Source: a virus
DNA: 64,000 bases
UHGV virus genome: UHGV-1332848
Direction: 5' to 3' (one strand)
The notes under the pieces were generated by a model. The model did no database searches, was not told the origin of the DNA, and saw nothing but the letters and a program-made list of their open reading frames with translations. This document shows positions 7,701 through 42,388 of the stretch, piece after piece. Each line of letters opens with the position of its first letter. The stretch's first letter is position 1. Both the position numbers and the translations under genes were made by a program.

Positions 7701-7958
7701 ATCCACAACAGTAGTAACTATAACATGTTGCATAGGCTTTATTTTCATGTACAATGGCGTTATCTTTTTCTTATCCTTGACTTGAATATACTTAGGAATA
7801 TTTATTTCAAACTCAGTAATAGATTCTAATTGTCTTTTTACATTTCCTATATAATCATTTGGTATATCATCTATTTTTTCATGTCTATTCCTATATAGCT
7901 CGGCTCTAAAGTCTTCGCCTGTATTCTTTATATTAATCTGCCTAAATATTTCTCTCAC
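4764..7958 (-). CDS. tail-associated lysin / tail tip protein (Tal-like, prophage tail endopeptidase family)
   Basis: 1064 aa, immediately after the Dit-like gene. Gly-rich collagen-like stretch SSSGGGYTGTSGAGGYYY and a His-rich C-terminal module HYHY..HWH..HEH..HRH..HNH. Confidence 0.55.
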   Translation of the reverse strand: MREIFRQINIKNTGEDFRAELYRNRHEKIDDIPNDYIGNVKRQLESITEFEINIPKYIQVKDKKKITPLYMKIKPMQHVIVTTVVDGIEKKERFVLIQPSKSISKNNGSKTFKAMSFEYTLKKKRTSFEGKVIQLKKDDVHIAEGVLDKFARETGWGVDYVDPKSRTELMSTTEKINVDLFKNYNKPTNVTEGELLFEKDITTTIDENRPLYISFEYSNFKTYDNGKLLIDTPTIYNTLTDALYTNIKKVQAYHHSDVGNRYGIKYVFTLTDNTRVERIAVFTNIINKTFSCENIRLTWETGNIIETENVKYINIENLDMDWYEALRSLQDNFKSVFLFDSYNKTVSVVHRDNLGEEKPYILTYDNAIIDINVTENSDYVTGLKVMGKNGLSIVSENIYGDDIVRNYSEYIRLGNMSDELQLALKRYETLLTTKQQEWLGIKNNVITEKQKQVRIDSEVQSLQLRVKDLKSILADYMSKNDTTNQARIKGEIDGLESRLNQCLALRLSYTHNIENLNNELMAISSSIDRKVVVDNQGKIFTDNDLDELNDIEQFGVYEDDYYSNSFSLLNASKKVLEEMIKPQLDFDINCVNLCKVIQNKRGWNYILELGSLFKFDEPELKEELGEDIVRFIGYEYEPKTNTISNLIFTNKTHRYNVAKSLADLGKKANSSNNLLNSLRPIIDDAMLSNNFVGEVLKNGLDLSAYIARGRGISNFIDISEAGIYLYDQSDMNKCLYIGSGLICISTDGFASSKTAISPDGIFAENLWGEIIFGEKLIATSDTGAFEITGDGLTIYDEFKRVRVKLGLFDDGNGNRKAGLTLYDKTGRSVVLDENGIIQTNQYIYSNDLDSSNPLEFEHIVDEGVYEIRKTTISLAFKEFRATVKSLNSGGASVSQTSSSGGGYTGTSGAGGYYYDTRSTQNLQYNSDRDIATTTPYAIDSPSENLDYYGRHYHYIFRETLKHWHDIQIEIPLHEHSVVIPDHRHSLTIDTTHNHTLVQGIYLGSKPSNCSLYVNDVLVRSGINSDITIDIKNYLTIGKANKIKITSSTLGRLQLTVFSKMFVGF

Positions 7959-8759
7959 CTACCTTAATGCCACTGGCAATTGATACTCTACTTTCAATCT
8001 ACAATCACCTATTATTTTAATTCTATTAACTCCATAATCAATATAAGGGAAACTATTGTATTCTAAACTCTTAAACATATTTTTAGTTGGCATAGTCAAT
8101 GACTCTACTTCAAGAACACCATCGCCAAGAATTCTCACCACCTCACCAACTTCCATATCTTTGACCTTAAATTTCCTTCCATTTTTAAGATTTAAAATTT
8201 CTACACTCCCTACATTTTTATGCTTTTCTATATGAATATCCAAATAAACTTTGTCATTTAGATTAGATTTATTTTCTAATTCAATTATTTTTTCACCGAC
8301 TACTTTTATATTGGAAGTCATAATTGGTGTATAAGCATAAGGGCATATACTCTCAAATTCTAATTTAATTATTCCTTGTCTATGAGGATTATGGAATTCA
8401 GTTGCAGATACAAATTTACCATAATGAATTAACCCATCAACCTCTAGTTTGCCAACACCTTTAATCATTAGCCAACCAATTATTCTATCATATTCTTTTT
8501 TACTCATTGGCAACACATCATTCCAACTATTTAGCCTCATTATCTCAACTGGGAAACTATAAGTATTATTCTTTTCATCTATGTATAGTTTTTTATCACC
8601 TATTCCATCTTGAGTTTGTACTGTTTTATTAACACCAAAAATTCTTTCAGTGTTATTACTATCTGTTGTAACTATTGATATTCCAAACATATCTGAACTA
8701 ACGCCATTAAACCTAAAGTAAGAACTATCTATAAATTGTGCCATTATTATCACCTCCAC
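7959..8759 (-). CDS. distal tail protein (Dit-like)
   Basis: 266 aa directly downstream of the tape measure gene. Conserved siphovirus gene order TMP-Dit-Tal. Confidence 0.5.
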   Translation of the reverse strand: MEVIIMAQFIDSSYFRFNGVSSDMFGISIVTTDSNNTERIFGVNKTVQTQDGIGDKKLYIDEKNNTYSFPVEIMRLNSWNDVLPMSKKEYDRIIGWLMIKGVGKLEVDGLIHYGKFVSATEFHNPHRQGIIKLEFESICPYAYTPIMTSNIKVVGEKIIELENKSNLNDKVYLDIHIEKHKNVGSVEILNLKNGRKFKVKDMEVGEVVRILGDGVLEVESLTMPTKNMFKSLEYNSFPYIDYGVNRIKIIGDCRLKVEYQLPVALR

Positions 8760-8791
8760 ATATAAAATAAGGAGGGTATAAACCCCTCCAA

Positions 8792-11700
8792 TTATCTAGT
8801 ACCAGCTAATTCACCTATTTCTCTCATTGTTTCATATTTTGCCTCCTTAATCATCTTTTCCACTTTCGGCAATACATCTTCATTCATATTCCCTTTAACA
8901 ATTAATTTATATTCTAAGTTAATATCACCAATTTGTTGTTTAGAGTTTGCATTACTCATATTTCTATTTACATTTGAATTTAAATTCAAGTCAACCGTAC
9001 TAATGCCTTTCAACTCAGTTATGAATTTATCTAGGTTTCCTAGCCAATCATTTTGAATTATATCTCCAACATTTGTAAATGTAGATGTAATACTTTTGTT
9101 TGCATTACCTACGCTATCTAATACTGAGGATAAATCTCTAACACCATTCTGAACCATTTTAAGAATTTCTTCGTCTGTTAATTTACTATTAATTTCATCA
9201 ATTTTATTTTGAGCATTCTCTTCTATCCTTTCAAGTTCTTCATCGTATCTTTCATTAGCCTTATCTCTTTCATTATCTCTAATGAAGCTATTTATATCTT
9301 GCTGTGCCGATTCAATTTGCTTTTTAATATTAGCTATTAATTCCCCATCCGCCATTCTCATGGCATCTTGAAGTTGAGATTCTAGATCAATTAAACTATC
9401 TTGACGCTTCTTTAACTCGTCTCTATAATCATCTTCGTCCCATTCTTTATTTCTTAAATCTTTCCTTTTTTGAATAGCTTTTTTTAATGCATCAGTTTCT
9501 TTGTTAATGTTTTCTATATATGAATCTTTTTGCTTTTTAATTAACTCTACTATTTCTTTTTGTGTATCTATTGTAGTATTTTTTAAGTCTAATATAGCAT
9601 TGCTAACTTCTGGTATTTGATTAAGTAAAAGGTCATTATATCTTTCTAAACTTTCAGCAATAGCTTTGGCATTCTTTTGTGCATTTTCTCTGGCATCTCC
9701 GCTTAAACTATTAGCCCAGTTAGTAAGAGCGTCAAGCCTGCTATTAGCATTTGTTATCCTGCCACTACCATCAGCATTGAATCCATTGGCAACTAACGAA
9801 TTCTTTAATTCAGATAATTCCTTCTCTTGTTCTTTATTTTTATTTTTATATGCCATTTCTTGTTTTTTAATTAATTCTAATTCTTTCTCTAAGTATTTTA
9901 ATTTTTCTTCATCTGAAGTGTTTTCCATTAAAATTTTATTTCTATCTAATTCATTGTCTAATTCCTTTAATGCATTATTTACATCCCTATATCTATCAGA
10001 TAACTTCTCCATGTTGGCAATTTCTTTTTCAGCCTTATCTTTAGAACCCTTATCCCCTATTAATGAGCTTCCTCGTCCAAACGTTGGCGAAGAAGTGTTA
10101 AAACTGGCGTAAAATTCATTAAAAGCAGTATCTATTTTTGCCTTTTCAGTTTGTATAGTTTTTATTTGTTGTAGTGCTTTGGTTGCAAATTTTTCATTAT
10201 TAAGTGCATCTATAGACGTTGCAGATTCAACAGACTTTTCAGCAAAACTGTTTAACCTACTTTCAGCCTTACTTATCTGTTCGTCTAGTTTTGCAAGAAT
10301 TTTACTCTTCATTTCAGCCCAGCTACGTGCATTAGCTAAGTCATCTCTGTAAGTTTTCGCACTTCCCCCAAGTAAATTTGCTAGAAAATCAGATAAAGGT
10401 TCAGATAGTTTCGTAATAAACCCAGCTTTTGCTTCGTTTAAAGTAGCAAAATTATCTAAATCAAAATCATAACTTTCACTATTTACGTCCACAAATTGAC
10501 TAGCAAATTTATCAAATGCATTTTGAGCCTCAGAGCTATTTTTAATTTTTTCAGCATAGTATTTTTGATCATTACCTATCATTACTTGATATGCTTCTTG
10601 TTGTATTGCCACTTGATCTTGAATCTTGTTATTTAAATACTCTTGAACAGCGTTAATATCTGTAATATTCCCACCTAAATCAGAATAGTTTTTAGCAAGT
10701 TCAGCTACTATATCAGGTGTGAGTTGTTGCTCCTTATTTATCTTCTGTAGTAACGTGTCAAGTTTTTCCACTTCTTCAACTGCTTTACCATAGTTTTGAG
10801 TTGCTTGTTCTATTGATACTTCAGCAAATCCACCAACTTCGGCATCAACATTGTCTTGTTTTGCCTTAGTATTTTCTTTTGTTGCTTCTGTTGCTTTATT
10901 TACAGAATTTATATAATTATTAACAGCACTCGTGTCGAATCCCATTTGAGTTAATTGAGAAGATTTATATCCATTATCTAACAACCATTTTATATGAACT
11001 TGAGCTTGCGATGCTTTTAAGGTTGTATCCTGTATTTCCTGATTGAGCTTGTCTAAATCAGATTGTGTTACTTTTTGAGAATATGTACCAGTTGTAGTTT
11101 TACCTCTTTCAGTGTAAGATACCTGCTTTGTGTATTCTTCTCCTTTTATCATAGCAAGTTTCATTTCTTCATATTGCTTTTTCTTCTGTTCCAAAGCATT
11201 TAGTTCATTAGTCAATCCTCTGTTCGTTTCTATAAACCCTAAAGCTTCAATTTCCATTTGTTCTTTTTTTAATCTGATCTGTTCCTCAATTAACCCATTG
11301 TTTTGACTTATTGCATCTCCCTGTAAGCTAAAACCACTAGCTGACTCAGGGAGTACACTTGCCAGTTGTTTTTCTATCTCAACTAGTTGAGATTCCAAAT
11401 CTTTTCTTTGACTTAAATTTGAAGTATTTGTTATTTGTTGTTCTAGCTTTGTTTTTTCATCAAGTAATTTTTGTGCTTGGGTTATAGCTTTACCACTATC
11501 TGTAATAAAAGCAGTGGATTCAGCATTCATTTCTTTCATCTCTTCTTTTGTTACTATTAATTTGTCTATAAGTTTAGTTACGCCAGTTATTATTCCAGTT
11601 ATAGCAAAACTCAATCCTAAAGTCATAGTTGCTGTAGCCAAAGCAGATGCGACTTCAACAGCTTTAAAACTAACAGCTAACGCTGTATTTTTTGCACTTA

Positions 11701-15614: not shown

Positions 15615-15701
15615 TTCTATATTTTCAATAAAATTCCACTTTTATTTAATTAATTATTATAATAATGCACACCATTTATAGATGTGCATAGGTTTTAATA
15701 A

Positions 15702-30376: not shown

Positions 30377-31222
30377 TTAACTAGCTAAATTTACACCATC
30401 TTTATAATGCTTAATCACATCAGAAATATCAATATTCTCTTCATTGCACATAGAAATAATAGTAGCTATTGCATTTGGAATTTCACTATCATCCAACATA
30501 TCAAGTGTTTTTGGTTTAGTTCGCTTTCCAGTTTTATTTAAATAATTCGTAATTCTACTGTTTATATTTATTGAATGGCTATATAATAAATTCTTTTTAT
30601 ATTCAGTCCAAGCACTACCAAAATCACCTTTAGCATATCTTCTAACTAATGCATTTATTAGGTTTCTATTAGCCCAACTAAACACTTCTCCACTCAATAA
30701 TCTTTTTTCAATCGATATAGTTTCATTTTCTAAAAGCAACTTTTCTTTTTCTTCTTCGGCTTCAACAAGCATCAATAGAGCCTCTTTAAAATTGGTCGGA
30801 AGTTTATATTGCTGTTGTTGGATTATTTCTCTCATCCTGAAATATTCTTCTATTATAGAATCCATAACTTCCCACTTCTTATCGTTTGAATTATCCATCA
30901 TTGCAACCAGCTTAGTATATCCTCTTTCAGATAGTAAAAATATATTTTTTGTTCTATTGTTAGTAATTAATCCATTTTCTTTAGCAAAATCTCTTAAACC
31001 TTCTGAAGGTTTTAGAAAATCCTTCAAATCATTATTATTAAATCTGTTGATATTATTGTTTATTAATGTATTTATTTTATCTAGCCTTAAATCATGTTGT
31101 AGTGCAATATCACTAGCTAAAATACATTTTTGATTTTCACCAAAACCACCTTCGACAACTTTTACACTTTTGCCATTAATTTCTTTTGTACCATTAATTT
31201 TGATTAACTCCATATATCTCAT
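30377..31222 (-). CDS. phage regulatory protein, Rha/antirepressor-like
   Basis: N-terminal KINGTKEINGKSVKVVEGGFG..ILASDIALQHDLRLDKINTLI resembles the Rha/ORF6 N-terminal module. Its own promoter region carries the recurrent motif. Confidence 0.4.
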   Translation of the reverse strand: MRYMELIKINGTKEINGKSVKVVEGGFGENQKCILASDIALQHDLRLDKINTLINNNINRFNNNDLKDFLKPSEGLRDFAKENGLITNNRTKNIFLLSERGYTKLVAMMDNSNDKKWEVMDSIIEEYFRMREIIQQQQYKLPTNFKEALLMLVEAEEEKEKLLLENETISIEKRLLSGEVFSWANRNLINALVRRYAKGDFGSAWTEYKKNLLYSHSININSRITNYLNKTGKRTKPKTLDMLDDSEIPNAIATIISMCNEENIDISDVIKHYKDGVNLAS

Positions 31223-32218
31223 TACCCTTTTGACCGTTCATATATTAACTCTTACAACTTAATAAGAAAAGGGCATGCCGTGGTCAATGTAAATTGCCTC
31301 ATCACAACTTACCCGTACAACCAAGTAACATCACTCGGATATTTTAATTAATTATTATTGTTGTCTGTAGCCATTTAATGCACTATAGAGTTGATTTTGA
31401 TAAAGGAGCTATTCTAACTCCTATCTACAGAATGTAGCTATCTATATTCAATTGTTCATACAAAGATACAATCAAATATATCCTTGGATTAACAATTGAT
31501 AAAATAGGTGATTTAATTAATTATTATACTATATGTGCTACTTACGATTGTTCTACAATCCTAAATCGCAGTACGTCTACCACTTGCACATATAGTAACC
31601 ACTATCCCACTCGTGAATAATATCTTTGTCTTTTTAAATGGAGCTATACTCCGTTGTTTTACGCTGTCCCCTTGGACGAAATATATCAATAGTCAAACCT
31701 CATACAAGTGTCTGCTAGCTATTTATTAAAACGATTTTGGTAGGCTTCGCAACCTCTATTAAAACAATTTTGATAGGCTTTGCAACCTCTATTAAACTGA
31801 TTTTATATTCACAAGTCGCTTCAAATCAATCCAGAAGCAATCCGAAATAAAACCCTTCACACTATCAGTAGAGCCCAATAATATTAACGTTAGCACAGCT
31901 AGAATACCTCCAACTTCCATTTATTATTATCTACCCTCACTCGACAACTACGGCGTACCGCCTATTTCCTCTATGTTGTATCAACTACGCCCTCATAAGC
32001 TGAAGAAGTAATTAAACTTGAATTCGCATCAGTAATCCCAATGAGAATTATTTCTCACATTCGGTAAAGAGCGACTTTACCTATCTATTTTTCTTTCCAG
32101 TGGTAATAGAAACCAATTAAATCACTGGCGTAAAGCCTATAATATAAATCAATAGTCAAACCTAATATAAGTGTCTGATATATATTTATTAAAACAATTA
32201 TTTTATGTATTTAATTAA
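31223..32218. other. about 1-kb ORF-free, GC-elevated island with two ~50-bp direct repeats and a 33-bp tandem repeat
   Basis: No ORF of 60 aa or more in any frame. Repeats at 31680-31740 and 32145-32205. Tandem ATTAAAACNATTTTGNTAGGCTTYGCAACCTCT x2 at 31724-31790. Confidence 0.5.
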
Positions 32219-32413
32219 TTATTCTTCACTGGGGAAGTCTTCTACTTTTCCCATTTGTAAAGTAACGCCTTCTATTTCTAAAAATTCATTCAGTTTTTCA
32301 GTTAAATTATATACCTTTTCATTGTCCTTAGTTGTTTCTACTATAATAAAATCTCCATCTTCATTTTTGCTTATACAAGCATTTGCGAATTTTAATGTAG
32401 TTGATTTCTTCAT
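32219..32413 (-). CDS. hypothetical small protein
   Basis: 64-aa ORF immediately downstream of the HU-like gene. Confidence 0.3.
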   Translation of the reverse strand: MKKSTTLKFANACISKNEDGDFIIVETTKDNEKVYNLTEKLNEFLEIEGVTLQMGKVEDFPSEE

Positions 32414-32424
32414 AATTCACACTC

Positions 32425-32700
32425 CTACGCTAAATTTTTCATAAGACTAGTCTTTTTAATTTTAATCTCATCATGTGCTGGAGTTGAATATTCTCTTCCT
32501 AAAGCTACTCCTGTTTTCCCTTCAACGTGTTTCTTTTCTAGCGTAAAGTATTGTCCAATCTTAACTTTTTCATCAACTTCTAAAGCTTCTGCTATTGATT
32601 CAAATGCTAAGTCAATCTTATCTAAAAATTCACCTGCTTCTTTCTTAGTTTCAAAACCAAGTTTTCCCTTTAATAATTCTACTAATTCTTTTTTATCCAT
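32425..32700 (-). CDS. HU/IHF-family histone-like DNA-binding protein (YonN-like)
   Basis: MDKKELVELLKGKLGFETKKEAGEFLDKIDLAFESIAEALEVDEKVKIGQYFTLEKKHVEGKTG...TPAHDEIKIKKTS aligns along its length with HU (MNKTELI..GFGNFEVRER..RNPQTGEEI). Confidence 0.75.
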   Translation of the reverse strand: MDKKELVELLKGKLGFETKKEAGEFLDKIDLAFESIAEALEVDEKVKIGQYFTLEKKHVEGKTGVALGREYSTPAHDEIKIKKTSLMKNLA

Positions 32701-32964: not shown

Positions 32965-35697
32965 TTATAAAATCATTTTTGTGGACTTTTTGTACGTTTT
33001 TTCATATATTTTTAATTTATTATTTAAATTTTCATTATCCTCAGTTAATACTTCAACGTCACCTTTTAACTGTTTGAATAAATTTAAGAATTGATTTTTG
33101 TGTGCTAAGAATAATATATTTAACAAAATAAGTCCTATTCTTTTTAAATTCCCATACTTATCATTATACTCACTCCCCAGCCTATATATAAGTGTTGTAA
33201 AAGTTTCATCTGATATTTTTAACTTAGATATAAAATCAACAATCTTCTCTTTTTTTATTACTGAATACCTGATTTTATCTTCATAACACATGTTACTAGC
33301 CCATACACCATTTATCTCATTATTTAATTTACCAACCTTATTTATTATATTTTGCATCTGTTTCCTATCAGATTTATGATTGTTTCCATCTACTAGTAAA
33401 TCAGTTAAACTAATAGTACTATCTATACTCTCTATTTTAGGCACTTCTTTGTCTATTATTTGTTCTAGGTAATCCATAGGTGTATCTTTTTTAATAAACT
33501 TATAGTTTTTCCCCTCACCTACAAATTTAAAAAAGTAAGGTCTGCACATAGCTTTTCTTTTTCTCTTATCTCTGATGATTTCACCATATGATATATATTC
33601 TCCATCTCTAATTGTTTTAAGCTCTATATCAGAATCAACAACAGATTCTTTTTTTGCTTTATCTATTTCTATACAGCTCATTACATCTAACTGACTTATA
33701 ATTTCATATAATCCTTCTAATGATTTTCCTTTTTTAAACCTATCCCAATATTCACTATTCAATATCTGAGATAAGTTTATGATTTCACCAATAAGATTCT
33801 TACTTGTTTTAATATCTAAATCTATTTTATCTTCAACACTATTAGTCCTATTAACTGTTTTTTTAGGTGTAAAATCTGTAGGCACTAAAAATTTACCATA
33901 TATCTTTTTCGCACTATTAACCAAAATTTCATTATCTGTAATTAATATCTGATCAGAGTCAAAATCAGCCCCTGAGAGTCTTTCTAATAAATTATTACCT
34001 ATGCTGTTTACATGAATTATAAAATTGCTAGTGTTAAAGTATTTATCTAATAATTCATTATATTTGTTTTTACAACACCATACATTACCCATCGTGACAT
34101 GAGGAGACCTTATTCCTATTAAATATATGTTATATCCGAAAGATTTAACACTTACCTCATCTATCCCCAAAGTACTATCACCATAAAACATACCGCAAGA
34201 AGCCTTTAGCATCTCATAACCATTTCCAAATAAAACACTATAATTCCCATTTATTAAAACGTGTCCTTTTCTTATATTGTTCTTGTATGACTGTATTAAA
34301 TTATCTTTGTACTTTCTAAATATCTTTGTATTTGCAAAGTTATCATTAATCATTAGTAATCTATAGACCAGTTCATCGCTATTAGTAAAATCGAACCTTT
34401 CGTCTTCTAAGTCCCATTTCTCAATTTTTTCCAAGCTTATTCCTATATGATTTCTAAGCACTGCCAAATCATCTTTTAATAACTTTATGTAATCTAAGCT
34501 AGGTCTTAACAATTCCCTCATGTCGTCATAGCTTAATGGTAATGTATTTAGTAATTGATAATGTGTTTGAACCATCTCGTGCATATTGGTTGGTGGTTTC
34601 TCATATTTTACCACACCAAACCTTTCATCTGAATTAGTTATCCAATACTCTAAACATTTGTCTCTATCATCACCAAAAGTTTTATAATTTTTGAATTTTA
34701 GATACTTTATGCTACTTGGAGTTGTTATTAGTTTTATATCCTCAACCTTTTTAGCTAAAGTAAAGCCTTTTAACTGATTAATATTATATACTTTGTTATC
34801 TTTAAAAAACTGTTGAATATTAGTATTGAAACAAGCTGATTTAAAAAATCTATTTCTTAACAACAAAAATCCTTTATCTTTATATTTCTCTTCAAAAACA
34901 CTTGCATCTAACAAAGATTGACCATCCCAAATACTATTAGATATTATTGTTTTCTTTTTTGAAGTAATTAATTTTTGTTCTTCCTCACACCATTCTGTAG
35001 CCATTACTATATCCTCAAATTGACTTTTAAAATCTTCAATTACTAATATAGATTTTGGATCTATATGTATGGTGTCTATTATTGATGATGTTGTAAGACT
35101 TATATATGCCTCCATGGAAGCTAAATCCATTTTGTCGTTCTTCCCATACTTTAACCCCATATAAGACCATTCCATCATGTTTTTGTATAAATCTTTTCTT
35201 ATAAATAGGCATTTCCCAACCCTACTTGAGCCACTGCTTCTTTTAAATCTAACATAATGCTTGCCATCTAATTTAAATCCATTTTTATAAAGTTCCTCCC
35301 TAATTTCTTTTGTAGTCATGTCTTTATGTTGATACAATCCAAACGCTATATCACTATCTTCAATCCTTTTACCATTTTCTCTTTTATATGTATAACTAAC
35401 CCTATCGAAATTCTTATTGTTCATATCTTTTTCATCGTTTATGTCTAAATCAATCTTTTTATTTCTATTACCATAGTTAAAAGTAACATTAACAACTGCC
35501 TTAGTATACTGTTTACCCTCTTTTTTATAAAATAATTTATTGTTAATTTCACTTATCTTTATAGCTTCTAGACTATAATCTAAGCTACCTTTAAAAAGAT
35601 TATTTTTATTTTTTGTCTCATAACCTTTTTTATTTTTTTGGGAATTTATAATATCTTTCCCTTCTAAGCTTATTATATAAGTATTAACCTTCTCCAT
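32965..35697 (-). CDS. putative YonO-like single-subunit DNA-dependent RNA polymerase
   Basis: 910 aa. Motif LSGADFDSDQIL (about 33950-33990) matches the universal beta-prime catalytic NADFDGDQ. An HU-like gene lies immediately downstream, as with yonN-yonO in SPbeta. Confidence 0.45.
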   Translation of the reverse strand: MEKVNTYIISLEGKDIINSQKNKKGYETKNKNNLFKGSLDYSLEAIKISEINNKLFYKKEGKQYTKAVVNVTFNYGNRNKKIDLDINDEKDMNNKNFDRVSYTYKRENGKRIEDSDIAFGLYQHKDMTTKEIREELYKNGFKLDGKHYVRFKRSSGSSRVGKCLFIRKDLYKNMMEWSYMGLKYGKNDKMDLASMEAYISLTTSSIIDTIHIDPKSILVIEDFKSQFEDIVMATEWCEEEQKLITSKKKTIISNSIWDGQSLLDASVFEEKYKDKGFLLLRNRFFKSACFNTNIQQFFKDNKVYNINQLKGFTLAKKVEDIKLITTPSSIKYLKFKNYKTFGDDRDKCLEYWITNSDERFGVVKYEKPPTNMHEMVQTHYQLLNTLPLSYDDMRELLRPSLDYIKLLKDDLAVLRNHIGISLEKIEKWDLEDERFDFTNSDELVYRLLMINDNFANTKIFRKYKDNLIQSYKNNIRKGHVLINGNYSVLFGNGYEMLKASCGMFYGDSTLGIDEVSVKSFGYNIYLIGIRSPHVTMGNVWCCKNKYNELLDKYFNTSNFIIHVNSIGNNLLERLSGADFDSDQILITDNEILVNSAKKIYGKFLVPTDFTPKKTVNRTNSVEDKIDLDIKTSKNLIGEIINLSQILNSEYWDRFKKGKSLEGLYEIISQLDVMSCIEIDKAKKESVVDSDIELKTIRDGEYISYGEIIRDKRKRKAMCRPYFFKFVGEGKNYKFIKKDTPMDYLEQIIDKEVPKIESIDSTISLTDLLVDGNNHKSDRKQMQNIINKVGKLNNEINGVWASNMCYEDKIRYSVIKKEKIVDFISKLKISDETFTTLIYRLGSEYNDKYGNLKRIGLILLNILFLAHKNQFLNLFKQLKGDVEVLTEDNENLNNKLKIYEKTYKKSTKMIL

Positions 35698-38238: not shown

Positions 38239-39438
38239 CTAAATAATAACCTCAAATTCAGATACGTCGTATTTACCATATGGTAAACCTGCAAAAGTAT
38301 AAGTTTTTATATTTTCAACAGCCCCTATACTATCTTTGTAGTCCACATATCTTAATAATGCTGAAATATATGACATTGTATCTAATCTGCAATATTTAGT
38401 TATGTCCTCATAATCTATACCAATCTCTCTTAATCTAGCCACAATTTCCTCGTCTGTTGTATATTTGTTAAGTCCTTTGAGTTTAAGTCTAACTGTGGTA
38501 TTGAATACTAAATTTATGCCATCGTTAGAATCTATATTATATGCTTCAAAGAATTTAACTGTCTTTAATTCTTCTAAAGCTTCTTTCAACCTTCTTATCC
38601 AATAGTAAGAATCTTGTTTAGTTTGTATTTGTATTCCCAAATAATCATATAATGTTTGTAATTTTATATATTTTTCATTACCATGTGACCACTGCGTTAA
38701 TATTAATAGCATTTTTTTAGCTATATTATTTTTCAATAACTTATATTTTTTATAATCATATAGCTTAAAGTAATTGCTAACTAAATTACTAAAAAAGAAC
38801 TCATCTATTTGGACACTTTGAAAATCCCTAATATCTTCATGATGTAGAAGTTCTCTACCTTCTAGTTTTCTAGTTTCAACTGAATAACTTTTGTACTTCG
38901 ATATTATCCTACTACTCTCTTCTCCGTTGAAACTACTTACATAAGCACCTTCTTTTTGATTTCTGATTGCCTGTTTGCTATATATAGTTGTTTCAACCAA
39001 ACATTTTATTGACTTTTCAAGTCTTTCTTTTGTTGCCTTTCCAAAACCCTTCAAACCCATCTCTTTTGCAAGTTCTCTATAGGTAAAATTAATAACATTA
39101 CTCATATTTTCAACTTTATTATCACTCGATACCACAATTTTATTATCCATATTTTTTGACTGTATTTTAAATAGAGCCATTAGTACATCCATTTCATATA
39201 TAGTTGGGCATCCTAAGTCAGCAGATCCTTTTACTGTTAGTTCAACTTCTACGCCATTTCTAATCCAACGCCTAACCAGCATCTTTTCTTTTTTTCTTTT
39301 AAGAGATATAAAAGGCAATGTCATTAAGTTGGATTCATTAAACGACTGATGAGGTTTTATAGTTATAACTTTTCCACAATCTGAATCATTGATATTATTA
39401 GCTTCAGCTATGTTTTCCACATTATCCACACCTTTCAA
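38239..39438 (-). CDS. plasmid-type replication initiator (Rep), TTG start
   Basis: 399-aa protein flanked on both sides by iterons. Classic iteron-Rep architecture. TTG start at 39438. Confidence 0.5.
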   Translation of the reverse strand: MKGVDNVENIAEANNINDSDCGKVITIKPHQSFNESNLMTLPFISLKRKKEKMLVRRWIRNGVEVELTVKGSADLGCPTIYEMDVLMALFKIQSKNMDNKIVVSSDNKVENMSNVINFTYRELAKEMGLKGFGKATKERLEKSIKCLVETTIYSKQAIRNQKEGAYVSSFNGEESSRIISKYKSYSVETRKLEGRELLHHEDIRDFQSVQIDEFFFSNLVSNYFKLYDYKKYKLLKNNIAKKMLLILTQWSHGNEKYIKLQTLYDYLGIQIQTKQDSYYWIRRLKEALEELKTVKFFEAYNIDSNDGINLVFNTTVRLKLKGLNKYTTDEEIVARLREIGIDYEDITKYCRLDTMSYISALLRYVDYKDSIGAVENIKTYTFAGLPYGKYDVSEFEVII

Positions 39439-39457
39439 TTAGACTTTAAATATCACC

Positions 39458-39558
39458 GTGGTATTGAGTGTTAATCATCGTGGTATTGAATGATAATGAC
39501 TGTGGTATTGAATGTTATCCACAGTGGTATTGAATACAAACAATTGTGGTATTGAGTG
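39458..39558. repeat. origin iteron array: 5 x GTGGTATTGARTG at exact 22-bp spacing, with embedded DnaA box
   Basis: Copies start at 39458, 39480, 39502, 39524 and 39546. Perfect DnaA box TTATCCACA at 39515-39523 and another at 39422-39430. Confidence 0.7.
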
Positions 39559-39742
39559 TTAAAAAAATTATGTTAAGCCTTATTATGACTTAATTTGACG
39601 ATTTGTGTTACTACGTATATAGTTTCTATAGTTATATATTACATATGTATATAATTACAGGTAAGAGATACTATATATAAAACACTCAACACCATTTCTA
39701 TTCAATTTATATTTAATTATAGCATATTTTTACAAATTATGT

Positions 39743-40477
39743 TTAAATGTTCAATAATTTTCTAAACCAATTCTTTTTATTTTTTAAAGACTCTATTTCT
39801 TCTTTGGTTACATAACTAGTTTTAAAAGTTTCTTTGATTTCATTTAGTGAAGACTTGAAGTCATTTTGACTTTCCTCTAAGTTATTGCTAAAATTATCTA
39901 ATAATTCCAAATCCCTATTTTTCTGATTAGTCTCAATATCATCCAAAAGTTTCTTTGTAGAAGATTCATGTCTTTCTAATTTAGAATCGAGGGATTCATT
40001 AAACTCATCTAATGCGTAATTTAGTTTTTGATTTTGGGCTTCAGCGTAAATTTCCATAAAGGTTTTTAAGCTATCTACTATTTGATTCCTCATAATTTCT
40101 AATTTTTCATCTTGTTTTTGAGTTATTTGAATAGCTAATGCTTCGAATCCCAATGGATCATTAGGATTAATTAAACCACTATTGTATTCACCAAAACTAA
40201 AACCACGTTTAGATATTATCTCCCTTATTTGTGTATAAGAATATTTCTTATCAACCAACTCCTTGATGAATTTCAAATTATCTATATCTTTTTTTGTATA
40301 TTTCCTTCTTCCGTTTTCTCTCTTCAACTCTAATAAATCACCAAATGACTCATCTTTAGCCCAATTTCTAATTGTAGTTACTGGTTCATTTAGTATCTCC
40401 GCTACTTGTACTGCTGTATAATAAATGTCATCTTTTAATTCGGTATATGAAACATCGGTAAAATTTAAATTTTCCAT
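39743..40477 (-). CDS. MerR-type HTH protein with long coiled-coil C-terminus (TubY-like partition modulator candidate)
   Basis: N-terminal YYTAVQVAEILNEPVTTIRNWAK is a MerR-type HTH. The rest is coiled coil. It is divergent from the tubR-tubZ operon across the AT-rich centromere-like region. Confidence 0.45.
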   Translation of the reverse strand: MENLNFTDVSYTELKDDIYYTAVQVAEILNEPVTTIRNWAKDESFGDLLELKRENGRRKYTKKDIDNLKFIKELVDKKYSYTQIREIISKRGFSFGEYNSGLINPNDPLGFEALAIQITQKQDEKLEIMRNQIVDSLKTFMEIYAEAQNQKLNYALDEFNESLDSKLERHESSTKKLLDDIETNQKNRDLELLDNFSNNLEESQNDFKSSLNEIKETFKTSYVTKEEIESLKNKKNWFRKLLNI

Positions 40478-40499
40478 AAGAATTTCCTCCTAATCAAAA

Positions 40500-40950
40500 T
40501 GGAATAAATTATATATATTATAATTTTATATGTAAATTAGAAGAATTACAATAGTTTAATAATTTAATTATATTACTTAAATTTAGTTGAAAAGTTTTGT
40601 TATATAAATTTAGTTAAGTTTATAATATTAATTTGTTTAGTTTAGTTTAATCTAATATATTTTAATTATACTTTAATAATTGTTTAATTACTATTTAATA
40701 ATATATTAATGATAATTTAGTATAAGTTTAATAATATTTTAATAATTAAATATAAATAAAGTTAATATTAATATATATTGAAAAAAATATTAAACTATAA
40801 TGTAACATTTATTAAATGGTTATAATATAATTATGAATATAAGAATAAATACTTATTAATATAATATTGTTTTATATTGACATTATATTTAATTTATAGT
40901 ATTTTATTAATTATGAAGTATAGTTATAGCAACTAAAGTGAGGTGTAAAA
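40500..40950. repeat. extremely AT-rich centromere-like region (tubC-like) with phased TTTAATAAT iterons and tubRZ promoter
   Basis: TTTAATAAT at 40672, 40694, 40727 and 40738, with spacings of 22, 33 and 11 bp. AATTTAGTT repeats at 40579 and 40609. Candidate promoter TTGACA (40874-40879), 17 nt, TATTTT. Confidence 0.45.
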
Positions 40951-40951
40951 A

Positions 40952-41284
40952 GTGGAATATGGTTCTATGTTTAATAAGAATGACTACGTTATACTTGAAA
41001 TGTTAATTGCAGAAGAATGCAATTCGCCATACAAATCATTAACAAAACAATTCATAATAAAACAGTCTGGATTTTCACATGTTAAAGTACAACAAGTTTT
41101 AAAATCTTTTTTGCTTGTTGGATTTGTAAAAGAAGGTACAAAAGATGGTAATAACAAAACATATTATTATACCGACAAGGGGAAAGAACACTATATGCAG
41201 GTTTTTGAGTATTCAAATGAAGATATAGAGATTTTAGTAGAAAATAATAAAGAGAATGAAAATAATAATCAGGAGGAAAGTTAA
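40952..41284 (+). CDS. tubR: TubR-like winged-helix DNA-binding partition protein
   Basis: 110-aa wHTH protein immediately upstream of, and co-oriented with, the tubulin-like GTPase. GTG start with RBS GAGGTG. Confidence 0.5.
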   Translation: MEYGSMFNKNDYVILEMLIAEECNSPYKSLTKQFIIKQSGFSHVKVQQVLKSFLLVGFVKEGTKDGNNKTYYYTDKGKEHYMQVFEYSNEDIEILVENNKENENNNQEES

Positions 41285-42388
41285 ATGTTAAAAGATTCTT
41301 GTGTATTTATAGGTGTAGGACAATGTGGAGGAAATATAGTTAGACAATTAGAATTAAAAGGTGGGTATTCATGCTTTTATATTAACTCATCAACTGAAGA
41401 TTTAGAAACTATAGGTACTGATTATGATAAGCAACATCATATTTCAGAAACAAAAGGAATGGCTAAAGATCAAAAATTAGCTAAAGAAATAATAAACGCT
41501 GAAGAGAGAAATTATATAATTGCAGAAAAGATATATAAGAGATATGCCAATGCTACGATATATACATTTGTATTCTCAACATCTGGGGGAACAGGTGGTG
41601 GAATGTCAAGTTCTATAATGAAAGCTATGAAAGAATGGTATCCAGATAAAATAGTAAATGCCATTGCTGTTAAACCACATTCAAGCGAAGATATGATTAT
41701 GCAATATAATTCATTGGAATGTCTAAAGGAATTAAAAGAGTTAAATAAAGATAACGTAGTAACTAATTTACAAATTGTAGACAATAATAAAAGAGATTTT
41801 AAGGATAAAATGAGAATAAATTCAGAAGTTGCATCTTTATTAGACGGAATAATGGCTTTTAATTCAATAACATCAGAAGGAAATTTAGATGAACAAGAAT
41901 TAGAAGTAATATATTCAACAAAGGGCGTTTCTTTTATATGTGAGTTTGGTGGTACTGATTTTGTAAATGAATTAGATAAAGCAGAGCAAAAAATGGTATA
42001 TGCACAATATTTAAAAAATGGTACTGTGCATGGTCTTATTTTAAATAAAGATTGTAATACAGAAATAAATAGAGCTATAATAAAGGATGCATTTGGATAT
42101 CCTTTAAAAACAATGGATACTGTATGGGATGATGAAAGTAATATTGTTTTTGTAGCTGGAACTGAATTTAATGATGGAATCTTAGAAGAATTAAAAAAAT
42201 CATATATGGAGATTAAAAAGAAAAGAGAAGAAGTTAACGATAAAGCTAAAGAAAAGAGTGAATCTGATATAAGTATAGATTTTAGTGAATTAGAAACAGC
42301 TTCTACAGTGATAAATACAAAAGTTCAAAGACCAGATAGAAGACGTAGAGTAGGCGTAAATGGTGAAATGAGCAGATATAGAAAATAA
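41285..42388 (+). CDS. tubZ: TubZ tubulin/FtsZ-like GTPase (plasmid/phage partition)
   Basis: T1 loop GVGQCGGNI (compare tubulin GQCGNQ) and G-box STSGGTGGGMSS (tubulin signature GGGTGSG). T7-like VDNNKRD. Basic C-terminal tail. RBS AGGAGG. Confidence 0.8.
   Translation: MLKDSCVFIGVGQCGGNIVRQLELKGGYSCFYINSSTEDLETIGTDYDKQHHISETKGMAKDQKLAKEIINAEERNYIIAEKIYKRYANATIYTFVFSTSGGTGGGMSSSIMKAMKEWYPDKIVNAIAVKPHSSEDMIMQYNSLECLKELKELNKDNVVTNLQIVDNNKRDFKDKMRINSEVASLLDGIMAFNSITSEGNLDEQELEVIYSTKGVSFICEFGGTDFVNELDKAEQKMVYAQYLKNGTVHGLILNKDCNTEINRAIIKDAFGYPLKTMDTVWDDESNIVFVAGTEFNDGILEELKKSYMEIKKKREEVNDKAKEKSESDISIDFSELETASTVINTKVQRPDRRRRVGVNGEMSRYRK

Follow-up and report, generated by a model that had tools for sequence, protein, structure and literature searches.

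The closest described counterpart of the locus analysed here is the pseudo-ToxI of the Pectobacterium phage phiTE, a phage-encoded mimic, without a toxin, of the ToxI RNA from a host abortive-infection system (ToxIN), whose native locus of 1.5 repeats becomes protective only after expansion (Blower et al. 2012, PLoS Genet, PMC3475682). In all described type III systems the repeats are located directly upstream of the toxin, in one operon, and the literature holds one toxIN locus on a prophage (PMC5086642). In SPbeta, the gap between yonN and yonK contains the start of the YonO late operon (P_YonO) and an unannotated ncRNA (Forrest et al. 2017, PMC5467207), and the pac site of SPbeta lies between yonR and yonP, upstream of yonO (bioRxiv 10.1101/2021.11.22.469490). 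Finally, clusters of tRNAs and ncRNAs (GOLLD, ROOL, skipping-rope, drum) have been described for phages, in which co-oriented RNA genes share one ORF-free stretch; GOLLD and ROOL occur near tRNAs in prophages (PMC5737381).

The 64-kb stretch of DNA that was analysed (the window) is part of an SPbeta-like Clostridium phage or phage-plasmid of ~130 kb, on basis of its terminase, YonO, YonJ and YonG homologues. The flanking phage proteins carry the source name 'Clostridium sp.' and the host is known to that level. A 910-aa ORF shares 23% identity over 530 aa, the DFDxD motif included, with YonO of a Bacillus SPbeta-like phage (E = 8e-21). The element has plasmid features as well, namely 22-bp iterons at 38-42 kb, beside an ORF in the Rep position and a TubZ-like gene. 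Positions 31223-32218 contain no ORF of 60 aa or more, the longest ones being 42 aa, as had been pointed out in the initial annotation. All genes that flank this region are on the minus strand and the region reads from right to left, the order being YonO-like phage RNA polymerase, HU gene, 64-aa ORF (32219-32413), ORF-free region and then the block of anti-repressor, YonJ, YonG and terminase. The anti-repressor-like gene is the next one downstream (30377-31222) and was assigned by ORF6N and a PHROG anti-repressor; the synteny in relatives is YonO-HU-...-YonK/YonJ/YonG. With its position among homologues of YonO, HU (YonN), YonK, YonJ and YonG, and being long, ORF-poor, richer in GC and provided with RNA motifs, the region resembles the yonN-yonK gap of SPbeta, whereas the Bacillus locus (L030) yields no blastn match to it and differs in RNA content (a DUF3800-VIII RNA in Bacillus phage BUCT082, where the equivalent gap measures 1.7 kb and is ORF-poor).

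The elevated G+C content that had been ascribed to the whole region was recovered between 31500 and 32100 (0.34-0.37 versus 0.25-0.32 in the flanks), where it is modest, and is absent from the left 300 nt. At gathering thresholds nothing in the window matched Rfam, neither a ribozyme nor any other family, and with E values up to 10 the segment 30900-32600 gave only chance-level matches to microRNA hairpins; ARAGORN recognized no tRNA. Blastn and megablast retrieved no match among the GenBank phages, and the scans of IMG/VR with three DNA patterns and one protein returned nothing. When the PLSDB plasmids were searched with the whole region, the tandem repeat described below was the sole matching part. 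One of the 42-aa ORFs (31792-31920), which has a hydrophobic N-terminus, was considered as a conserved gene and rejected because only the window and L025 have it intact (L numbers denote individual loci); the start codon is missing in L003 and L019 and a frameshift is present in L015. The elements discerned in the region are the following, in the direction of reading:

32208..32222, minus strand: copy 1 of an intergenic motif, (T)ATAATAATTAATTAAA, overlapping the stop codon of the 64-aa ORF
32144..32199, minus strand: B2, upstream 56-nt copy of element B, with a 12-bp interrupted hairpin at 32152-32181
31737..32143, minus strand: cassette C1, holding block X, block Y and the antitoxin-like array
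32066-32121: block X, with a hairpin at 32063-32081
31800..31829, minus strand: sigma-70-like promoter candidate TTGATT-N18-TAAAAT, a consensus match only
31789-31914: block Y
31724..31804, minus strand: putative orphan ToxI-like (type III antitoxin) array, period 33, 2.5 copies
31800->31768 and 31767->31735, minus strand: full units 1 and 2 of the array
31681..31736, minus strand: B1, downstream 56-nt copy of element B, with a hairpin at 31689-31718
31529..31680, minus strand: cassette C2, several hairpins, fold z = -3.0
31514..31528, minus strand: copy 2 of the AATAATTAATTAAA motif, at the boundary of variable cassettes and constant part
31361..31510, minus strand: Z, constant RNA domain of ~150 nt with four hairpins, from the folds of relatives and covariation
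31344..31358, minus strand: copy 3 of the AATAATTAATTAAA motif
31223..31343, minus strand: leader of the anti-repressor-like gene

The tandem duplication of 33 bp that had been noticed in the region proved genuine, with 87% matches between its copies; by chance no such repeat was expected. In each unit, ACCAAAAU or AUCAAAAU comes after a hairpin of 5 bp (AGGUU-GCRA-AGCCU); both full units are bracketed by three AAAAU sites, and the G.U pair of the hairpin forms solely on the minus strand, which is the strand of the genes. Using a 22-nt core pattern of the unit we retrieved 22 metagenomic contigs with one to three units each at a spacing of 33 nt, among which the invariance of the core is partly built in by the search pattern. 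A full-length ORF follows the array in 6 of the 22, and the 5 distinct ORFs among these match PF13958 (ToxN_toxin) with E values of 1e-38 to 1e-43, the one from L042 also matching solved ToxN structures. In L036 and L055 what follows the array is a ToxN cut off after its first 53 residues, with 83-85% identity to the ToxN of L042. The contigs outside the ToxN-linked set break off at the array or have it without toxN. The C. perfringens plasmid NZ_CP148656.1 has a promoter, then three units and a terminator, and after these an annotated ToxN/AbiQ toxin. In total there are eight ToxN-linked loci, all with the repeats directly upstream of the toxin in one operon; according to TRF their arrays have a period of 33 and 2.1-3.5 copies, and in the metagenomic toxN contigs and on the plasmid the unit occurs in 2-3.5 tandem copies with a promoter before and a terminator after them.

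Compared with the arrays that precede the PF13958 ORFs, the array of the window shows 91-97% identity, and compared with the one in front of toxN on the plasmid, 93.8% over 81 nt. Unit 2 equals the consensus of the ToxN-linked units at 32 of 33 positions and unit 1 differs from it at four, including a change of GCGA to GCAA in the loop. The ToxIN subfamily with this unit is found on the C. perfringens plasmid and in contigs of gut Firmicutes with a GC content of 26-53%, and the cognate system also occurs in contigs of 26-29% GC, close to the 28% of the phage. Given that the array combines short tandem repeats (roughly 30-50 nt in about 2-6 copies for such antitoxins) with homology to repeats that precede ToxN, it is, as judged by its sequence, a type III antitoxin (ToxI-like) repeat. 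Its sense orientation agrees with the strand of all flanking genes. The predicted promoter upstream of it ends 9 nt ahead of AGAGG in the first unit (the -35 box is TTGACT in L003) and has the same geometry as that of the toxIN locus on the plasmid, though it is no more than a match to the consensus, of a kind that is not enriched in the region over shuffled sequence. A CRISPR-like reading of the GTTTTAATAG... unit, or one as RNA anti-CRISPR, was rejected, as there are no spacers and the linkage is to toxN instead of cas genes.

No toxN was found in the window, either with tblastn of five ToxN proteins (best E 2) or with a Hidden Markov Model of these five run against all stop-to-stop ORFs (best E 0.53), and the related phage loci L001-L030 yielded none in the parts that were sampled. 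The array can therefore be called an orphan ToxI-like array within the 64 kb, about half of the phage genome, that its sequence context covers. It shares with the ToxIN/AbiQ locus of NZ_CP148656.1 the 33-nt sequence, the period and the copy number, as well as a promoter-like site at equal distance and a hairpin after the array. In contrast to such loci, no ToxN/AbiQ gene lies directly downstream, the array resides in the leader of phage late genes, and the place of the Rho-independent terminator is taken by the AU-rich, non-canonical hairpin of B1, a position at which a 13-bp stem forms a clear terminator in the C. perfringens locus. The array is also absent from close relatives with the same backbone (L010, L013, L014, L016, L024 and L032). 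Orphan units recur elsewhere, on the same strand as tRNA arrays in L037, L041 and L052, and in L038 between tail genes of a phage, where a skipping-rope RNA follows immediately. The phage backgrounds concerned include three or more that are unrelated, and in every case the units share the orientation of the tRNA or ncRNA genes.

Being phage-encoded, lacking a cognate toxin and resembling a defence antitoxin of potential hosts, the array has the properties of a phage antitoxin mimic, and the suggestion in the initial annotation that an anti-defence RNA might be encoded agrees with this. Like the pseudo-ToxI of phiTE it is an intergenic, toxin-less tandem repeat on a phage, the copy number of which varies and changes by recombination. 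However, the units of the window are near-identical (32/33) to ToxN-linked units and measure 33 nt, whereas those of phiTE represent a diverged mimic of 36-37 nt. Moreover, the array natively contains two complete units (1.5 repeats, without a full unit, in wild-type phiTE), the host is a Clostridium instead of a Proteobacterium, and the array is embedded in a variable island of ncRNA/tRNA cassettes.

The surroundings of the array were found to be a mosaic. In phages with an identical 64-aa ORF the gap ranges from 537 to 1722 nt and is built from exchangeable cassettes, with the layout B-C1-B-C2-Z in the window, B-C2-Z in L016 and L014, B-C1-B-C3-Z in L025 and B-C3-Z in L024. Besides, the gaps of relatives hold tRNAs (tRNA-Ser, tRNA-Tyr and tRNA-Trp) and, in the more distant YonO-encoding ones, skipping-rope RNA or drum RNA. 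The similarity to the phage tRNA/ncRNA clusters lies in the co-oriented RNA genes within one ORF-free stretch, but the window itself has no tRNA or Rfam family and the antitoxin mimic is its only identifiable module. Cassette C1 is missing in L014 and L016 and present in L025 (95% identity) and the identical locus L012 (100%). L003 has blocks X and Y in reverse order, and there the hairpin of X changes from GGTAAAG-TCGCT-CTTTACC to GGCAAGG-TCGCT-CCTTGC, which we read as two compensatory changes. An extra 665-nt segment of L003 lies between two copies of CAGTTTAATAG; a group I intron was rejected, since its junction would break the 5'-U / 3'-G rule and exon context is lacking, and the segment is better read as the insertion of a cassette at a junction repeat. 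Cassette C2 contains a three-way junction closed by a 12-bp stem (31527-31538 / 31586-31597; inverted repeat I5) and a hairpin CUAUU-CACGAGUGG-GAUAG with a conserved loop; the CACGAGTGG hairpin is also found in L004, L006, L011, L018 and L049, with a U-A pair replaced by C-G in L011 and L018.

The direct repeat of about 50 bp that the initial annotation described corresponds to element B, of which B1 and B2 are 56 nt long, 88% identical and spaced by 463 bp. The 30-nt core pattern given for it occurs exactly twice, with zero occurrences expected by chance, and both copies indeed have TTGACT on the minus strand (AGTCAA on the plus strand). Across 12 distinct copies 96.5% of the cells in the B hairpin are paired, one pair covaries (C-G in six copies, U-A in six) and an invariant G.U would be C.A on the opposite strand, which makes B a predicted conserved, strand-specific RNA hairpin. 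Most relatives have a single copy; L016 has one, and B1 together with everything left of it is 99% identical to L016. By this comparison, the second copy shows where a 463-bp cassette bearing the array was inserted. B1 occupies the place of the terminator in true toxIN loci. The stem of B is not GC-rich, unlike that of a canonical terminator, and the terminator scan, which reported none downstream of the array, did not flag it; B probably acts as a weak terminator or stabilising hairpin at the boundaries of cassettes. A role of B as sigma-70 promoter was considered and rejected: TTGACT is kept, but on reading the 12 variants none has a -10 box 16-18 nt further on. A B-type 19-mer is part of a true TTGACT-N18-TATAAT promoter solely in the unrelated contig L033.

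The constant part of the island is domain Z, a conserved RNA modelled with four hairpins. It was recovered from 13 relatives of the same clade, representing 12 distinct sequences (L001, L002, L003, L010, L011, L013, L014, L015, L018, L019, L024, L032 and, by blastn, L025), and blastn detected none in L004, L006, L007 and L009. Folding the sequences of the relatives one by one gave the same architecture each time. RNAalifold on MAFFT alignments under-calls helices H2 and H3, because loop lengths vary between relatives, and the per-sequence folds were used instead. In these, 95.8% of the cells are paired versus 25-51% with the partners slid, four pairs show compensatory changes, and the covariation score exceeds those of all 500 shuffles. 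The arms of the long hairpin are at 31448-31468 and 31479-31499, and a single-stranded UUAUCAAAAUCAAC is nearly invariant. A structured ncRNA, another of the options raised initially, is thus borne out by strand-specific hairpins that are kept in relatives with compensatory changes.

Our preferred reading, which we give a probability of roughly 70%, is that the ORF-free kilobase represents an island of RNA genes, consisting of exchangeable cassettes at the head of the late genes, in which the tandem repeat is a toxin-less copy of ToxI that the phage most likely uses to disarm the ToxIN of its host. The array would be transcribed from its own sigma-70-like promoter or within the late leader. 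In a host carrying ToxIN, the phage-induced shut-off would cause the unstable host ToxI to decay and set the ToxN RNase free, upon which ToxN would release 33-nt units from the phage transcript by cleaving it at the AAAAU sites. Such units could re-bind and silence ToxN, and abortive infection would fail. In the plasmid-like prophage state the array RNA could, in addition, protect the cell from killing upon loss of a ToxIN plasmid. Considering that the 1.5 repeats of phiTE do not protect until they are expanded, two units may or may not suffice here.

The absence of toxN beside the array, the mosaic nature of the region and the existence of arrays followed by a truncated ToxN (L036 and L055) could also be explained by a recombination-acquired toxIN locus that lost its toxin gene and left the array as a functionless remnant. 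We consider this unlikely, as the toxN coding sequence left no trace in the window whereas the array retained complete units with bracketing AAAAU sites and a unit 2 that is identical at 32/33 positions to units in a functional context. Likewise, the single unit of L003 is 100% identical over 38 nt despite an RNA polymerase that is only 80% identical, and the recurrence of co-oriented orphan units in at least three unrelated phage backgrounds speaks against a remnant as well. There is only a slim chance that the array serves as antitoxin to a toxN of the phage itself, encoded in the genome half outside the window and used for maintenance of the plasmid-prophage or for phage exclusion. The window covers 64 of about 130 kb, and the TubZ-like gene, the iterons and the one prophage toxIN locus in the literature would fit; yet repeats and toxin form one operon in all described type III systems and all eight loci found here, and the array is missing altogether in the six close relatives with the same backbone, a lack that a toxin would not permit.

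Quite improbable, too, is that the entire kilobase forms one large structured RNA of the GOLLD/ROOL/OLE type with the repeats as internal modules. The predicted fold of the whole region is more stable on the minus strand (-255 kcal/mol, z = -5.6) than on the plus strand (-185 kcal/mol, z = -3.7), and the tRNA-associated occurrence of GOLLD and ROOL in prophages is in line with such an RNA, but not even the permissive Rfam search gave a match to one, and the tandem repeat exists as an independent unit beside toxN genes. Differences by whole blocks between identical flanking genes, together with the reversal of X and Y in L003, do not fit a single co-folding molecule. That the repeats are signals at the level of DNA, i.e. 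replication iterons, a pac site or attP, has a near-negligible probability in our view. Direct and tandem repeats in non-coding DNA are typical of such sites, and a lytic origin, packaging site or attP had been among the initial suggestions, along with an antisense RNA and a ribozyme; of that list the anti-defence and structured RNAs are supported, and the origin, packaging site and attP are not. The genuine iterons, the Rep-position ORF and the TubZ-like gene are situated elsewhere, at 38-42 kb, the pac site of SPbeta is upstream of yonO, and whole cassettes of the region are swapped among phages with identical flanking genes, close relatives being devoid of the repeats. Furthermore, the hairpins are strand-specific with invariant G.U pairs, and the sequence of the tandem unit is that of an RNA antitoxin.

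More tentatively, and with the odds somewhat against it, the island with its toxin-less ToxI copy may exemplify a dedicated, hypervariable 'RNA anti-defence locus' of Firmicutes phages, SPbeta-like ones included, where the head of the late transcript would carry an array of partner-less RNA halves of host immune or toxin-antitoxin systems, plus tRNAs replacing those cut by anticodon nucleases. The RNA halves would be the ToxI-type repeats here and possibly the skipping-rope, drum and DUF3800-associated RNAs in relatives; short junction repeats (AAAAU..GUUUUAAUAG) as well as the B hairpin would be the sites at which cassettes are exchanged. On this view, X, Y, C2 and Z would serve as decoys for, or regulators of, defences that have yet to be recognised. 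So far, RNA-based escape from abortive infection has essentially been one laboratory case, phiTE, in which the array was selected for; here, the antitoxin RNA of a ToxIN subfamily is present ready-made, as a near-identical copy, in a wild Clostridium phage. The recurrence of the orphan unit in the tRNA/ncRNA arrays of other phages suggests that the theft of antitoxin RNA is a common natural counter-defence. The phage array and ToxN WP_195962030.1 (NZ_CP148656.1) form a directly testable pair. The finding is relevant to phage therapy against C. perfringens-like hosts and also to annotation, because such arrays escape gene callers and Rfam. The ORF-free stretch after yonN, long unexplained in SPbeta-like phages, is a place to seek further RNA counter-defences.

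The 121-nt leader of the anti-repressor-like gene contains a TTGACC-N17-TATTAA sequence (31259-31287), which was read by inspection and fails the criteria of the scan tool. The AATAATTAATTAAA motif was found at 32208-32222 on the minus strand, as the initial annotation had it, and around 40 copies are present in the window, co-oriented with the genes and often abutting a ribosome-binding site.

The gap in coding capacity reported in the initial annotation is real: between the start of the 281-aa ORF and the stop of the 64-aa ORF that border it, the longest ORF is 42 aa. Both repeats described there were also recovered, B as a 56-nt direct repeat (31681-31736 and 32144-32199, 88% identity, spacing 463 bp) and A as a 33-nt tandem repeat (31724-31804, 2.5 copies), and such patterns are far commoner in the window than in shuffled sequence (expected 0). 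The GC elevation was confirmed as well, at 0.34-0.37 in 31500-32100 against 0.25-0.32 around it, which is a modest rise. The minus strand carries every gene from 0 to 37 kb. The features of the region and its surroundings are:

30377-31222, minus: 281-aa ORF, ORF6N / anti-repressor-like, left edge of the ORF-free region
32219-32413, minus: 64-aa ORF, right edge of the ORF-free region
32425-32700, minus: HU-family gene, right of the ORF-free region
32965-35697, minus: 910-aa ORF, YonO-like, right of the ORF-free region
39452-39561: four to five 22-bp iterons, beside a 399-aa ORF in the position of the relatives' Rep3
39743-40477: MerR-family gene
41285-42388: TubZ-like tubulin GTPase gene

The 42-aa ORF (31792-31920, minus) has a hydrophobic N-terminus (MEVGGILAVLTLILLGS...) and its stop codon lies within the first repeat junction. 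It was rejected as a conserved gene: only the window phage and the related locus L025 have it intact, L003 and L019 lack its start codon, and L015 has a frameshift.

Read on the minus strand, the A unit is UCGUUUUAAUAG-AGGUU-GCRA-AGCCU-ACCAAAA, which folds as a 5-bp hairpin with a GNRA loop and a U.G pair that is possible on this strand only. A scan of metagenome contigs with a 22-nt core yielded 22 contigs with 1-3 units at a spacing of exactly 33 nt; the search pattern fixed the core sequence in advance but left the 33-nt period, the flanking bases and the toxN linkage free. On L035, L042, L043, L048, L051 and L053 the units come after a promoter-like site, and beyond them lie a hairpin and its T-run, then a ribosome-binding site in front of a full-length ORF. 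The five distinct array-linked ORFs score 1e-38 to 1e-43 with PF13958 (ToxN_toxin), and for one of them there are matches to solved ToxN structures too. On L036 and L055 the array precedes only the first 53 ToxN residues. Within the plasmid collection, the sole match to the window array (93.8% identity over 81 nt) was found on C. perfringens plasmid NZ_CP148656.1, 60 nt upstream of a gene annotated as 'type III toxin-antitoxin system ToxN/AbiQ family toxin', in the order TTGACA-17-TATTCT, three units, terminator (13-bp stem) and toxN. Type III systems are defined by this order of promoter, repeats, terminator and toxN (PMC5086642). Compared to the consensus of the ToxN-linked units, unit 2 of the window (31767->31735) differs at 1 of 33 positions and unit 1 (31800->31768) at 4 of 33. 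Three AAAAU sites bracket the two complete units, and A-rich motifs, such as GAAAU, are the cut sites of ToxN enzymes (PMC10853763). The ToxN partners of the A repeat share only 48-63% identity with one another and reside on contigs of 26-53% GC. Judged from sequence, A is almost certainly a ToxI-type antitoxin array.

There is no toxin gene in the window: ToxN was found neither by tblastn of the 64 kb (best E = 2) nor by searching all 399 stop-to-stop ORFs with an HMM built from five ToxN proteins (best E = 0.53), and it was not found in the related phage loci L001-L030 either. Among the sampled relatives the array is carried only by the window/L012 locus and L025, with a single unit in L003, and A units are absent from the close relatives L010, L013, L014, L016, L024 and L032. 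This patchy distribution fits an accessory function and is at odds with a self-toxin.

The region lies in an SPbeta-like setting. Its left flank comprises the ORF6N / anti-repressor-like gene, a YonJ-like exonuclease, a YonG-like protein and the terminase. To the right, the 910-aa ORF encodes a YonO-like single-chain two-barrel RNA polymerase, a member of PHROG 8308 ('unknown function'). It aligns over 530 aa with YonO, the RNA polymerase of a Bacillus SPbeta-like phage, at 23% identity (E = 8e-21, DFDxD metal motif aligned); the protein itself had no Pfam match and PF05183 was found in one relative. Its homologues number thousands in Clostridia metagenomes, the YonO-HU-...-YonK/YonJ/YonG synteny is kept in relatives (contigs of 127-155 kb), and public sources label the HU-family and 64-aa proteins 'Clostridium sp.'. 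Genes for plasmid-type maintenance lie at 38239-42388, and given the TubZ-like gene and the iterons at 38-42 kb, the element looks like an SPbeta-type phage-plasmid, probably resembling C. botulinum phage c-st. In Bacillus phage BUCT082 (L030) the yonN-yonK gap of 1.7 kb (7243-8962) is nearly ORF-free and carries a Rfam DUF3800-VIII RNA at 8632-8697, near which no DUF3800 protein is annotated. Since this equivalent SPbeta/BUCT082 gap is ORF-poor and contains RNA, the window region is the clostridial counterpart of a known, uncharacterised non-coding stretch that heads the late genes. At about 7290-7430 the BUCT082 gap also has a tRNA-like sequence that includes a long insert; the primers that Forrest et al. 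used for P_YonO primer extension map to about 7523-7770.

An exact lookup of the 64-aa and HU proteins gathered about a dozen phages whose flanking genes are identical and whose gap measures 537 to 1722 nt. According to blastn these share one layout, namely motif AATAATTAATTAAA, B, variable cassettes (C1, C2, C3), the constant domain Z, which opens with a second copy of AATAATTAATTAAA, and a variable anti-repressor gene:

L016 and L014: B-C2-Z
window (100% identical to L012): B2-C1-B1-C2-Z
L024: B-C3-Z
L025: B2-C1-B1-C3-Z

As B2-C1-B1 precedes C2 in the window and C3 in L025, the 463-bp unit (one B plus C1) is an add-on ahead of two different backgrounds. B1 and all sequence to its left are 99% identical to L016. 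The cassettes of relatives carry tRNA-Ser (two), tRNA-Tyr and tRNA-Trp, all on the gene strand. On that strand, a skipping-rope RNA occurs in the homologous island of L006 (10436-10582), and L009 carries a drum RNA that lies outside the equivalent gap, about 2.9 kb downstream of its YonK-like gene; neither a tRNA nor an Rfam family was found in the window's region. L003 differs from the window by a GC-rich, structured-looking insert of about 665 nt (9676-10353) between two copies of CAGTTTAATAG, followed by the single A unit and tRNA-Trp, and cassette insertion appears to happen at this junction repeat.

On the minus strand, B forms a 12-bp interrupted hairpin in 12 distinct copies, with 96.5% of cells paired; sliding the partners lowers this to 31-49%. 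One pair alternates cleanly (C-G in 6 copies, U-A in 6) and one G.U pair is invariant. Most relatives have a single B, about 45 nt after the 64-aa ORF. AAAAU..GUUUUA(AUA), resembling the junction between A units, precedes each B core, and other cassettes were inserted at such AAAAU..GUUUUA-type junctions in L018 and L003. The C1 cassette, with the array at its end, may thus have joined a B-C2 backbone, where recombination at short homology would have duplicated B. B1 holds the position of the toxIN terminator and B2 the expected terminator position of the polymerase-HU-orf64 unit. Because the stem is AU-rich and the terminator scan did not call B, we only infer a role as terminator or stabiliser, at roughly even odds. 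B as a sigma-70 promoter was rejected, as the -10 box is missing after it.

The orphan array would function as a decoy with odds somewhat better than even, and for array identity and decoy function combined we estimate a probability of about 0.7. The array would then be transcribed, its transcript processed by ToxN, and its RNA would neutralise the toxin while the phage infects or while it persists as a plasmid-prophage. Nearest to this among described cases is the pseudo-ToxI of phiTE, a phage that escapes ToxIN by means of ToxI repeats that were expanded or captured (PMC3475682). Both are phage-borne antitoxin RNA mimics, a known kind of which the window array is a new natural member; in contrast to phiTE, it belongs to a Gram-positive host, has another repeat that is near-identical rather than diverged, and sits in a hypervariable ncRNA/tRNA island. 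Our incomplete coverage of the literature turned up no study that surveys phage genomes for orphan type III antitoxin arrays.

The main rival to the decoy is that a toxIN locus was captured and the array is what is left of it, without function. A toxin-antitoxin system of the phage's own, split over the genome, is contradicted by specific results, and so is a single giant RNA. The same holds for the DNA-level signals proposed in the initial annotation (origin, pac site or attP): the iterons lie at 38-42 kb, and in SPbeta the pac site is on the other side of yonO from the yonN-yonK gap (bioRxiv 10.1101/2021.11.22.469490).

Besides the array, the region holds other putative RNA modules. Z (31361-31510) occurs in 13 same-clade relatives as 12 distinct sequences and was not found by blastn in L004, L006, L007 and L009. 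Folded individually, the relatives adopt one four-hairpin architecture, including L001, L002 and L013, whose long hairpin has diverged in sequence. In the two cleanly aligning helices 95.8% of cells pair; compensatory changes are seen at four pairs, and the covariation score is beyond every shuffle. Z is the constant leader element and may be the equivalent of the SPbeta 'unannotated ncRNA'. At 31395-31408 (minus strand) a nearly invariant single-stranded UUAUCAAAAUCAAC after hairpin H3 resembles the hairpin-plus-tail of A (AGCCUAUCAAAAUUG), which may be chance or a second ToxN-recognised site. C2 (31529-31680) folds better than shuffles (z = -3.0), and a hairpin in it, whose CACGAGUGG loop is conserved, also turns up in more distantly related phages with a single compensatory change. 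Within C1, the hairpin of block X shows two compensatory changes relative to L003, and block Y bears a promoter candidate and overlaps the non-conserved 42-aa ORF.

Orphan A units were also found elsewhere, between tRNA-Thr and tRNA-Gln in L037 (a contig with an endolysin-like ORF, PHROG E = 3e-7), upstream of tRNA-Pro in L041 and upstream of tRNA-Thr in L052. In L038 (1583-1727) two units directly precede a skipping-rope RNA (RF02924, 59 bits) between phage structural and tail-fibre genes, which together with the L006 case hints that skipping-rope RNAs travel with anti-defence RNAs. L034 (2019-2915) and L046 contain a distinct ToxIN-like locus with 36-nt repeats (2.9 copies) and a ToxN homologue (26% identity); the single orphan 33-nt unit about 230 nt downstream may be a cross-acting antitoxin beside this second system. 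What comes after the promoter and the A units (one or two) in L039 (10045-10274), L040 and L047 is not toxN; instead there is a 49-nt repeat (2.2 copies) and a truncated 76-aa ORF like a type III toxin N-terminus, and the whole looks like a composite or decayed multi-antitoxin array.

Finally, an 18-nt motif, (T)ATAATAATTAATTAAAA, fills most intergenic gaps of the window (about 40 sites), always oriented with the downstream gene, for example at 15656(-), 21239(-), 35990(-), 36542(-), 49303(+), 52448(+) and 62284(+). Every frame of either strand contains a TAA, a TATAAT lies at the 5' end of the motif, and the motif is found sometimes 6 nt ahead of a TTGAC -35 box, sometimes flush against the ribosome-binding site. 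Possible readings are a promoter specific to the phage, perhaps served by the YonO-like polymerase, a site bound by a regulator, or a signal for punctuation or termination.
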